A stretch of 64,000 nucleotides of DNA from Geothrix sp. (GTDB lineage Bacteria > Acidobacteriota > Holophagae > Holophagales > Holophagaceae): positions 234,232 through 298,231 of the forward strand of contig NZ_JAHRYQ010000002.1 in assembly GCF_020622065.1 (NCBI RefSeq), read 5' to 3'. A model generated the notes under the pieces. That model worked only from the letters and a program-made list of their open reading frames with translations. It was not told the DNA's origin and ran no database searches. Of this stretch, positions 12,089-15,000 are shown in pieces; within the stretch, counting starts at the first letter, position 1, and each line of letters begins with the position of its first letter. The position numbers and the translations under genes were made by a program.

Positions 12089-15000
12089 TTATAGAATAAT
12101 TCCACCAAACATCCAAGTCTGTAGGGCAATACCGAAATGTCCCACAAAACCCATACTGGGATTAGTGCGCGGACGATTTGGAACACCTCCTCTGAATGGT
12201 AGATCTCCCATACTTCCACCTCTGCCAGGTCGCAATTGGAAGTGGAAGTGTGGACCACTCGACGATGAAGACGGATGAAGTTTCTCATCCAGGCCAAACT
12301 GGGCACCTGCCCTCGCCCCATCAGCCATTGCCTTTTTCGGATCTTTTGCATTGTATCTTATATCCACCGCAAGTCCCTCATAGTGTGGACTCCTGGTGGA
12401 ATGGACCCCATTGGTAGTCGCTGTGACTGTCACACCTTTCGGGAAGTTATCACCTGATTGCTTCACAAACTCCCTAATGAATCCATCCAGGTTATCCGGT
12501 AGAGGGGTTGGAACTTTGCCGGTTGTCTTGAAATCCCCATCCAACGCCTGCCTCCACCTAGGGGTGAAAGAGATATCCCTATCGGAGCCATGAGTGTCAG
12601 GTATGGGTCCGAGGTCGCCATTATTTGTTTGTGCCGTATGGGTTTCAGGTTTTCTCGCTTCCTGCCCCTCCGCGGCATTACTCGCCCCTTCGCTCCCGGC
12701 ACCATTCGTCCCCCGAGTCTCGCTATCGGTTGAAATTGCATCCGCCAGGTATCCCATGATTCCGGACCCGCCGCCAATGGCGGTGCCGCCCGACACGCCA
12801 AAGATGTCCCAGTCCATGGGGTTTGACTGCATGGACATCAGCTGGTCTTGTGCTGCCTTCAAATCTGACCCGAATGCGGCCCGTCCATCCGGGTCTGTCT
12901 TCGTCACGGGATTGTTCGTCACATAGTTGTAGAGGTTCCAGGATTCGGGATCATCTTTGGTCTGGTCGTAGACGGGGTCCACTTGGGCGAATTTCCCGTA
13001 GACGGGAAGGTATTCCCTAGCCTGCATGTAGATCGCCTCACTGTCAGGATCCTCCTCGTGGTTGGTGAAGCGACGAAGGGCCGTTTTCCCCCAGCCGACC
13101 ATCCGCTCGCCGAAAGGAAGATTCTTGGATCGGCCCACGATCGCCCCCAAGGCATCGGTCATCACCGAGGGGCTCCCCACCTGGTCCGACTGGATGAACA
13201 TCGTTCCCACGCCGGGTGAATCCTCCGATAGTTCCTGCCCGAAACCATAGACGATGGTTCGCCTCCAGACCAGGGCTCCGGGAGCTCGCGCCATGACCGT
13301 TACGGTGGCGGTCACGGCTCCAACCAGATTCCTGGCGGTCAGCGTGTAGGTGGTCGTCGCCGCGGGCGACTGCTCGAAGCTGTTCCCCGTCACGGGCACA
13401 CCGTTGATCTCAAGGCCATCGGCTTGGCTCACGGACCACCCCAGGGTGGTGAGCCCTCCCGGCAAGACTTCCTGCGGGTCCGCGTAGAAGTCCTCGATCA
13501 TGGGCAATCCGGCCTCCACCACCACGGTGACCGAGGTACTGACCGAGCCCACGCCATTGGCGGCCCTCAGGACATAGGTCGTTGTCGCTGCGGGAGACAC
13601 CACCAGGCTGTTCCCCGCAACCGGCCCGATCCCCTCAAGGGTGAGCGAGGTGGCGTTTGTGACGCTCCAAGTCAGGGTCGTACTCTGTCCCAAAGCGATG
13701 GTGCTGGCCGTCGCTGAAAACTCGGTGATGCTTGGGGGCGCTGGCGCATTGACCGCCACGGTCACCTGCGCGGTGACGCTCCCTGCAGCATTCGTGGCCG
13801 TCAGCGTGTAGGTCGTGGTCACCTTCGGGAACACCTTGAGATGCCCCTTCCCTGCCACCGCGCCCACACCCTGGTCGATGGAAAGGCGGGTGGCTCCGCT
13901 CGATTTCCAACTCAGGGATGCGCCTTCTCCCGGAAGGATGCTGGCCGGACTGGCGGCGAGGCGGGTGATAGAGGGCTGAGCCAGCACCCTGACCACGACA
14001 GAATCGGCGGAAGCCCGATATCCAGCGGCTCGCGCCCTGAATATCACGGTGTAGCTGCCAGCCTGGGTGAAGGCATGGCTTGTCCTCGTGCCAACCGCTC
14101 GGCTGTGATCGCCGAAGTCCCAACTGCAGGCAGTGCCGAAGGTCGTCTCTCCCGTGAAGGCCACGCTGCTTCCGGGCGCCACGGTGATGGTCGTGGAAGG
14201 TTGCAGGATGGTGGCGCCGGCCGCTGGGTGACGGGTGCGCCCCAAAGTCGTTGTCGATAGGTATTTGGGAGGGCTAATCGGTGCGGGCACGGAAAATTGA
14301 GCCAAGGGCTCCCGGCCGAAACCATAGACCGTGTAATCGATGCTCCCGTCGGCGCGCATGCGCTTGAAGCGAAGGCCTGATGCCTCTAGCAGATAGGAGG
14401 TTCCATTCTCCTTCACCACCCGCCCCGAAGGATCGTAGAGCCAGGAGGCCAGCGCATTGGCGGTACCCGGATAGGCAAACACCTGGCTTAGGCGCCCCAG
14501 CACATCGTACTGACGCCCCGTATCGTAGGTGCCCATGGTCGTGGCCATCGCGGGACTCCCCTGGCTCAGGGCCACGAGGGCACCCGGGAGATCGTTGCCA
14601 ACCATGGAATCGGCCCGCCAGGCGCGAAGCTCCGAAGGCTGGAGGCTGCCCGGTTCACCCTCCGCATAGACGAAATTGGACTGGATTCGGTTCCCGAATG
14701 GATCGTAACCGAACCACTGGTCGACCCGTTCTCCATGGATCCCTACCACGCGACTGGCGCTGAGCCGTTGGAGTTCGTCATAGCTGAAGACATCATCCCC
14801 GCGGCTGAGCATCAGCCCCCCCGCCGACCATGTGATGGCGTTCGTTTCGACCACGCCACCGGGAGCCGCATGCTGCGTCAGAGCCAGCTCATCCTTGTCC
14901 AAGGTCGAGAGCGTGGTGGCGCCGTTGCCGAGGATCAAGGTGTTCGTCACCGCGGTACCTGCAATCTGGTCGTAGATCATCACCCCCCGGAGATTGCCAT

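Follow-up and report, generated by a model that had tools for sequence, protein, structure and literature searches.

In a 64,000-nucleotide stretch of DNA from Geothrix sp. (contig NZ_JAHRYQ010000002.1, positions 234,232 to 298,231; hereafter the window), a single large Rhs gene encodes a tandem array of extra modules at the place where the wall of its predicted cocoon passes into the lid. A PKD domain and three immunoglobulin-like (Ig-like) modules occupy positions 13289-14215, residues 1512-1820 of the minus-strand open reading frame (ORF), between the last YD strand and the Rhs-associated core, as a first-pass annotation made from the sequence alone had claimed and as Pfam, a profile of the repeat family and an AlphaFold2 model agree. 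The protein is an Rhs polymorphic toxin, with YD repeats, a predicted cocoon fold, a core carrying an autoprotease motif and a toxin that has been swapped between relatives. We think it probable, though well short of assured, that the array is an exposed binding device on a Sec-exported Rhs cocoon that is comparable in size to the BC cocoon of toxin complexes (Tc) and carries a cell-wall hydrolase.

The insertion site is defined by close relatives that lack the insert. In these proteins, which have the same N-terminal region, shell and core subtype, the two flanking strands are joined by a turn of 7-9 residues ('..QYTMYGFGREPLVVFEKPSGGSLTWKQDMVYGFGQLL..', also written '..YGFGREPLVVFEKPSGGSLTWKQDMVYGFGQ..', in P0251, where the 7-residue turn is 'EKPSGGS', and '..YMIYGFNREPLSRFLAPTSGGCVWKGDMIYGFGQLL..' in P0226), and canonical relatives at a greater distance are built alike ('..YNDARQLVSQYEKTASGSLTWKRDILYLGTREAAE..' in one of them); the window protein reads '..DYTVYGFGREPLAQFS[340 aa]LVWRRTIVYGFGQEL..'. 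Because insert-less relatives join the same two strands by so short a turn, the array can be said to replace a beta-hairpin turn, and the modules do interrupt the shell-core junction, as had been proposed. Rhs structures show one end of the cocoon sealed by the conserved C-terminal region, which spirals inside it (PMC8765631), so that this turn is the point where wall becomes lid. Across the family the gap between the last Ig-like module and the core is only 0-9 residues. We also considered whether YTVYGFGREPL could be a duplicate of the core strand IVYGFGQEL, left as a scar of duplication or fusion, and rejected the idea because canonical relatives have both strands, as ordinary consecutive hairpin strands joined by a short turn.

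Within the array, Pfam places the PKD domain at residues 1521-1586: PF00801 (PKD) matches residues 1521-1584 (E 1.2e-7; 32 bits, cutoff 23.5) and PKD_4 (PF18911) matches with E 4.7e-7 (30.2 bits against 27). The three tandem Ig-like repeats are 45-49% identical to one another and were scored with a profile hidden Markov model (HMM) built from their own repeat family; in Pfam searches with single modules no curated family exceeded its threshold, and module 1 alone gave sub-threshold matches, to He_PIG (18.3 bits against 24; E 0.003) and, partially, to I-set (16.3 against 23.7). The Pfam check that the first-pass annotation had proposed picked up the PKD domain and not the Ig-like modules. The PKD domain and all three Ig-like modules are all-beta in the AlphaFold2 model, with a predicted local distance difference test score (pLDDT) of ~75-85, and Foldseek also matched Ig arrays such as those of GhpA and contactin; this secondary structure and these matches suggest that the Ig-like modules are beta-sandwiches. 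When the whole protein was compared with PDB sequences by phmmer, the sole match was the collagenase PKD domain 2y72. The repeat of ~77 residues has the consensus P.I..F.A.P..I..G.S..L.W.V.GA..V.I..GIG.V...G...V.P..TTTY.L.A.N..G and occurs by itself in a great many unrelated proteins (2506 matches at E <= 1e-5); Pfam sees it only as partial I-set, Ig_ADGRF3 or DUF7927 matches, and it seems to be without a curated family.

The modules are constrained coding sequence under purifying selection. Codon comparison with the 88%-identical orthologue P0121 gives dN/dS values of 0.16 for the PKD domain and 0.32, 0.27 and 0.30 for Ig-like modules 1, 2 and 3, against 0.12-0.14 for the shell and 0.06 for the core, so that the array evolves about twice as fast as the wall. 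The linker between shell and PKD domain, of only 21 codons, has a dN/dS of ~1.1 and is apparently neutral.

The flanks of the array are those that the first-pass annotation described, namely YD repeats upstream (RHS_repeat PF05593, E 1.2e-16; TIGR01643, E 1.8e-7) and a TIGR03696-type core (Rhs_assc_core) downstream, at residues 1878-1955 (57.5 bits against a cutoff of 32.5). Residues 761-1960 were modelled from a 26-sequence alignment, with the N-terminal half of the shell outside the model, giving a mean pLDDT of 80 and a predicted TM-score (pTM) of 0.66; pLDDT is ~90 in the shell, below 50 in the linker (residues 1491-1508) and 70-87 in the first core strands. Foldseek matched the modelled shell best to Tse15 (8uxt, E 5e-27) and then to RhsA, Tse5, the teneurin-like protein (TLP) 9ifo, teneurins and TcdB2-TccC3 (to 1e-16), which points to a beta-cocoon, as a predicted fold rather than a solved structure. 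The N-terminal half of the protein matches no family in Pfam, nor do its N-terminal 715 residues in NCBIfam, and a separate model of residues 46-760 (pLDDT 83.5, pTM 0.83) consists of long beta-hairpins that Foldseek matches to YenB (5kis_A, E 1e-8) and TcdB1 (6l7i_F, E 6e-8) with a probability of 1.00. Query-normalised TM-scores against these TcB hits are only 0.30-0.38, while those against teneurins are poorer still, at 0.08-0.09. Together the ~1440 residues of the two halves are predicted to form a cocoon of TcB-TcC size, which would fit a cargo of ~28 kDa.

Conservation is highest in the core, whose opening strand is given as 'IVYGFGQELSED' (96% identity to P0121). The conserved block of the core begins with 'LVWRRTIVYGFGQELSED' at residue 1825 and ends in 'NNPVTKTDPDG/R', a PxxxxDPxG autoprotease motif, and the sequence 'YGKFAQVDP...NNPVTKTDPDGR' holds both that motif and the pair of presumed catalytic Asp residues. 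From the motif, the core would be expected to cleave itself after DPDG. The two Asp residues of this pair, D1924 and D1952 (in the segment of residues ~1919-1952), are 28 residues apart, compared with 22-24 in solved Rhs proteins as counted from residue numbers in papers and PDB titles. In 'YGKFAQVDP' a Lys takes the place of the Arg that other Rhs proteins have in 'GRF'; this Lys is common to nearly the whole subfamily, and P0112 has 'YGRF'.

The architecture is common in Holophagae-type Acidobacteriota, although uncharacterised. A profile of the core searched against 185,579 species genomes found 45 loci, all but one of them labelled Acidobacteriota or acidobacterial taxa (Geothrix, Holophaga, Holophagaceae, Holophagales, and metagenome-assembled genomes labelled Solibacteraceae), the exception being one 'Deltaproteobacteria' metagenome-assembled genome, and a search of 1.84 billion representative proteins with Ig-like module 3 plus core gave 187 matches at E <= 1e-30. 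Counting only the proteins and ORFs that we collected from these searches, our survey of insertions before the core found at least 48 fused proteins that run from shell through PKD and 1-5 Ig-like modules to core, with the fused architecture present in 9 genomic loci from different species; 7 proteins have a different insert at the same site and at least 8 canonical close relatives have none. Full-length fused proteins have 1, 2, 3 or 5 Ig-like modules after the PKD domain, and none of those collected has 4. The orthologue P0121, found on two independent metagenome contigs, has the same PKD domain and three Ig-like modules and also has MurJ downstream; it is colinear with the window protein as far as 'TDPDGR', after which the two are unrelated (30% identity) and P0121 continues with an NlpC/P60 domain, which, judged from the sequences, is the classic toxin swap of polymorphic toxins.

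What occupies the site varies. P0129, from Geothrix sp. 21YS21S-4, has three CBM_4_9 repeats there (residues ~1445-1918, Pfam E 2.4e-20), P0130 and L004 (residues 1434-1598) have a single module resembling a carbohydrate-binding module (CBM), and P0135 has a PKD domain with three further beta-rich repeats that look Big_2-like, which Pfam did not confirm; inserts in relatives reach 570 residues, with P0211 carrying one of 568 at the wall-lid site. In a neighbour-joining tree of the 130-residue cores, which is too weak to order fused and split forms as ancestral or derived, the architectures are interleaved and proteins with 2, 3 and 5 Ig-like modules are adjacent. The site appears to behave as a hotspot for the gain, loss and exchange of modules. 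According to the first-pass annotation this placement is not known to have been described for bacterial Rhs toxins, and full-text literature searches gave us no account of PKD and Ig-like modules in tandem where wall meets lid, nor of a gene split there; the placement is, on the other hand, not rare. What appears to be new is a PKD/Ig array at the shell-core junction, whereas decoration of YD shells by other domains was already known from SGS1, TcB and teneurins.

At ten loci (L011, L017, L024, L026, L029, L031, L032, L035, L036 and L042), which include three cultured species, Geothrix terrae, G. limicola and G. rubra, the gene is divided at this same site. A shell-only gene stops in the wall-lid loop, for example at '..YRIYNEIRQLVSEYELVKE*', and the gene directly next to it on the same strand has a clear signal peptide followed by PKD domain, Ig array, core and toxin, with up to eight Ig-like modules and fewer or none detected at some of these loci. 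The shell-only proteins P0136-P0141 end at the wall-lid loop, P0112 is a typical product of the second gene, and wherever enough sequence is available upstream of a shell-less array-core-toxin gene, a shell gene directly precedes it. At four of the split loci only one stop codon, in frame, stands between the two ORFs; read-through of it was considered and rejected, since the downstream ORFs have their own starts and signal peptides and other split loci lie in different frames. The same genomes also contain orphan rhs core-toxin cassettes (L020, L028, L039-L041, P0109 and P0091), which are short ORFs starting within or at the core; unlike these, the second genes of split loci have a signal peptide, a full array and a directly preceding gene for a shell that ends in the loop, and for these reasons they are not simple recombination spares. 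Because the gene is split at the loop, the loop is the boundary of two separable units, container on one side and lid plus cargo on the other, and to regard the array as decoration alone, as the first-pass annotation did, misses this.

Comparison with characterised systems places the protein near several of them and within none. The best Foldseek matches to its shell (E ~1e-26) are type VI secretion system (T6SS) effectors, namely RhsA of P. protegens (7q97), Tse15 (8uxt), Tse5 (8cp6) and the S. bongori Rhs (8qjb), with which it shares the YD cocoon, the core with its DPxG autoprotease motif, the polymorphic toxin and an adjacent immunity gene, in the window a candidate one. Unlike them it has no match to PAAR, VgrG or clade domains in Pfam or NCBIfam, it has a Sec-like N-terminus, and among the 20 neighbouring ORFs scanned (positions 74-32725 of the 64-kb window) there are no T6SS, PAAR, VgrG or TcA genes. 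Its cocoon wall is also longer, ~1440 residues against ~1000, and T6SS Rhs surfaces are smooth and undecorated (bioRxiv 10.1101/2024.02.26.582050), whereas the window protein has an array of four domains at the wall-lid junction. The N-terminus reads as a shortened form of the clear Sec signal peptides of relatives (P0122-P0130), which end '..A(G)-SEGDP', and would be consistent with Sec export.

The BC cocoon of Tc toxins (YenB/YenC 4igl and 5kis; TcdB2-TccC3 6h6g) has its TcB part as the best match to the N-terminal 715 residues, and cocoon size and a cargo of ~28 kDa are shared. The Tc cocoon consists of two polypeptides and has a beta-propeller inserted in its shell; in the N-terminal model neither DSSP nor Foldseek made a propeller evident, with DDB1-type matches at a probability of ~0.1. 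TcB and TcC are divided in the middle of the shell, TcC keeping ~680 residues of wall, whereas in acidobacteria the second protein of a split pair retains nothing of the cocoon but the lid and, unlike its Tc counterpart, has its own signal peptide. With no propeller, and no TcA among the ORFs scanned, the window protein is not a strict Tc BC component. Domains inserted into the sequence of a YD shell are documented for SGS1, TcB and teneurins, and the shell of SGS1 (8fjp) is decorated by two Ig-like beta-sandwich domains, a CBM and a lectin-CRD, inserted in the YD sequence and proposed as receptor domains (PMC9935623). Mosquito SGS1, which is among the Foldseek matches of the window shell, is the closest precedent for decoration, with the differences that it has single mid-shell domains rather than a tandem PKD/Ig array at the shell-core junction, is eukaryotic, and has as cargo a set of helices and not an enzyme toxin. 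Teneurins and TLPs (9ifo), like the window protein as we read it, are Sec-exported YD shells with extra adhesion domains, and bacterial TLPs, some of them in Acidobacteriota, keep the DPxG autoprotease and encapsulate polymorphic toxins (PMC13018210 / 10.1101/2025.11.11.687626). The adhesion domains of TLPs (BIG, TTR, TIP) are N-terminal, however, and their superfold comprises FN-plug, NHL and YD shell; the TLP match to the window protein covers the YD shell only (9ifo_A, E 8e-23), and neither FN-plug nor NHL was found by Pfam, NCBIfam or Foldseek of the N-terminal model. For want of an FN-plug and NHL the window protein is not a teneurin-like protein.

We propose that the product of the gene is an Rhs polymorphic toxin of a Holophagae-type acidobacterium, exported by Sec and independent of any T6SS. 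The TcB-like N-terminal half and the YD repeats, ~1440 residues together, would build a cocoon of BC size; the conserved core, spiralling inward, would close one of its poles and would cut the chain after DPDG, leaving the ~28-kDa toxin inside. A flexible linker of 20-30 residues and the PKD-Ig-Ig-Ig array would stand in place of the beta-turn between the last wall strand and the first lid strand, so that the array could point away from the sealed pole, with a rigid attachment to the lid and a loose one to the wall. It would mark the boundary between the container and the lid with its cargo, and could serve as an exchangeable module that binds a surface, its ligand being a glycan or protein of the target cell or of the producer's own envelope. 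The outward position is suggested by volume. The 340-residue insert amounts to ~37 kDa and ~45,000 cubic angstroms, to which the toxin adds 264 residues (~28 kDa), and published cavities measure ~25,000-37,000 cubic angstroms (bioRxiv 10.1101/2024.02.26.582050); the array is too large for such a cavity, which argues that it lies at the sealed pole on the outer side.

Modules of the PKD, Ig-like and CBM kinds typically serve for binding outside the cell, and their exchange at one site, together with purifying selection, agrees best with a role in targeting or attachment; the suggestion that the array acts as an adhesin or receptor-binding module is thereby made plausible, the CBM_4_9 repeats at the same site in relatives pointing the same way. 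Several observations nevertheless weigh against this picture. The linker from shell to PKD domain, 27-51 residues in relatives, has a length that does not follow module number (r = -0.06), and since a straight rod of 4-6 modules would span ~160-240 angstroms, so short a linker could not return the chain to the hairpin; the array must then be bent, or else the pairing of wall and lid strands is not (or not always) kept. The last 68 residues of the core were modelled with pLDDT below 50, probably because the N-terminal half of the shell was left out of that model. The Ig-like module has no characterised family, the toxin is assigned at motif level (E 0.02-0.1), and the split versions show that lid and cargo can be a separate polypeptide.

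The split loci lend themselves to a different account, which we regard as possible though distinctly less probable, in which the array is a tether or assembly element, the leash of a lid-plus-cargo unit at the fusion site of what was a two-protein system; the lid-cargo unit would dock into, or be pulled from, an open shell after Sec export, and pulling on the array would open the lid. The ten loci at which a shell-only gene is paired with a signal peptide-PKD/Ig-core-toxin gene, in three cultured Geothrix species among others, are what this account expects, as are the shell-only proteins that end at the wall-lid loop, the tight Ig-core junction (0-9 residues) set against a long, low-complexity and apparently neutral shell-PKD linker, and the length of that linker in fused proteins (27-51 residues), which is about that of a signal peptide plus tail. 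Yet loading of an Rhs cocoon in trans after export is without known precedent, an interaction between the split proteins is supposition, and the exchange of the array for CBM modules fits binding better than a pure tether. TcB and TcC, moreover, need to be co-produced. An arrangement closer to teneurins, with array, core and toxin lying outside the shell as a linear stalk and the core acting as a self-cleaving release module, seems to us improbable. Array-core-toxin proteins with no YD shell in the same polypeptide (P0112, L017) would suit it, and so would the short linker, which speaks against a straight array returning to the hairpin, the low confidence of the modelled distal core, and the position of the teneurin C-terminal domain outside its shell (PMC8765631); but no part of the protein is more strongly conserved than the core (96% identity, dN/dS 0.06), which is of the same subtype as cores joined directly to the wall, the shell-less proteins with enough upstream sequence all have a shell gene directly upstream, and an open cocoon of 1440 residues with no cargo has no evident purpose. 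That mis-assembly or a sequencing error has joined an Rhs gene to an Ig-repeat gene unrelated to it, an idea to which the abundance of the repeat on its own (the 2506 matches at E <= 1e-5) might have lent some colour, we regard as refuted for practical purposes by the 88% orthologue with the same architecture on two independent contigs, by the at least 48 fused proteins and 9 loci from different species that share it, and by a continuous reading frame whose inserted modules are under purifying selection. A second, independent shell beyond the array, which would have made the modules merely N-terminal to it, was looked for as well and none follows, only the 131-residue core and 264-residue toxin remaining downstream; no other Rhs, Ig or core sequence was found elsewhere in the window.

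If the array is a binding module on an exported cocoon, as we favour, it bears on how Rhs/YD cocoons that are neither fired by a T6SS nor docked on TcA find their target and open. The exchangeable wall-lid site, which holds a PKD domain with 1-8 Ig-like modules, CBM modules or a clean gene split, offers a candidate targeting module, a natural experiment on supplying lid and cargo in trans, and a tolerated site for cocoon engineering, within a large uncharacterised Rhs subfamily of Holophagae (Geothrix, Holophaga) whose members in our collection carry varied toxins, several of them of cell-wall hydrolase types. We speculate, with rather more doubt than conviction, that in Holophagae the container and the lid-cargo-Ig unit can be made as separate Sec-exported proteins and assembled outside the cytoplasm, the fused form being a leashed version, and that pulling on or binding by the array moves the lid and releases the toxin. 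If this were true, array-driven movement of the lid would be a T6SS-independent mechanism for opening an Rhs cocoon.

Table 1. Parts of the Rhs protein and its neighbour in the window, and three of the split gene pairs (last three rows, identified by locus)
Feature	Positions	Strand	Remarks
Whole Rhs gene	12089..18748	minus	ORF of 2219 aa from GTG at 18748
Short hydrophobic N-terminus, 'MVVLACLQAFAGAEG'	18569..18613	minus	resembles a Sec signal peptide
N-terminal cocoon half (predicted), aa 61-760	16469..18568	minus	long beta-hairpins, TcB-like (AlphaFold2 and Foldseek)
YD-repeat shell wall, aa 761-1490	14279..16468	minus	RHS_repeat and TIGR01643; last strand 'DYTVYGFGREPLAQF'
Low-complexity linker, shell end to PKD, aa 1491-1511	14216..14278	minus	pLDDT <50
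PKD domain, aa 1512-1590	13979..14215	minus	PF00801 and PF18911
Ig-like module 1, aa 1591-1670	13739..13978	minus	repeat-family HMM E 1e-33; all-beta in AlphaFold2
Ig-like module 2, aa 1671-1747	13508..13738	minus	repeat-family HMM E 3e-29
Ig-like module 3, aa 1748-1824	13277..13507	minus	repeat-family HMM E 2e-25; nearly no spacer to core
Rhs-associated core (lid/seal), aa 1825-1955	12884..13276	minus	TIGR03696; starts 'LVWRRTIVYGFGQELSED', ends 'YGKFAQVDP...NNPVTKTDPDG/R'
Variable C-terminal toxin, aa 1956-2219	12092..12883	minus	'HSTRSPHYEGLAVDI' and 'GPHFHFQ'
Candidate immunity gene	11550..12074	minus	ATG 14 nt past the rhs stop codon; proposed from position
Split pair, locus L024 (Geothrix terrae SG184)	3920-8608 / 8612-10996		shell / array-core-toxin
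Split pair, locus L026	2474-6817 / 6821-10969		shell / array-core-toxin
Split pair, locus L031	2916-7628 / 7496-10996		shell / array-core-toxin

The probable start of the Rhs ORF is an ATG at 18613, which would give a protein of 2174 residues, and the orthologue P0121 begins at the corresponding ATG. At the other end of the protein, the toxin motifs 'HSTRSPHYEGLAVDI' and 'GPHFHFQ' make up a LAS/Hedgehog-type zinc-peptidase signature; NCBIfam gave no match to the toxin, and its weak matches, in Pfam and the PDB, are to the Sonic hedgehog N-domain (E 0.12) and M23 peptidase (E 0.02). The toxins of the family include, besides this LAS-type peptidase, M23 (P0001) and NlpC/P60 (P0121) domains, all cell-wall hydrolase types, and the window toxin is probably a peptidoglycan hydrolase of ~28 kDa. 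The product of the small ORF that follows the rhs gene has an N-terminus resembling a signal peptide, 'MFAPLAFSVLLAIAST', and an FG-GAP-like motif, 'VGDFNGDGKKDFAV', with weak matches only, to FG-GAP (E 0.003) and XAC2610_fam (E 0.07), and is a candidate periplasmic immunity protein.

The scanned neighbours are housekeeping or unrelated genes, among them those for aconitase B, lumazine synthase, NusB, biotin carboxylase, MurJ, an acyl-CoA-ligase-type enzyme and a Met-zincin. The interval from MurJ to the rhs/immunity pair contains a zinc-ribbon fragment of an IS1595-type transposase (9009-9386, plus strand) and a gene for an NTP_transf_8 nucleotidyltransferase (10161-11399, plus strand); in the orthologous locus L046 three other small ORFs take the place of the genes at 9009-11399, and this segment appears to be variable. 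An ORF of 1254 residues on the minus strand (1273-5037) matches no family, overlaps the aconitase B gene (1492-4074, plus strand) and, in this genome of 66% G+C, is probably a shadow ORF.

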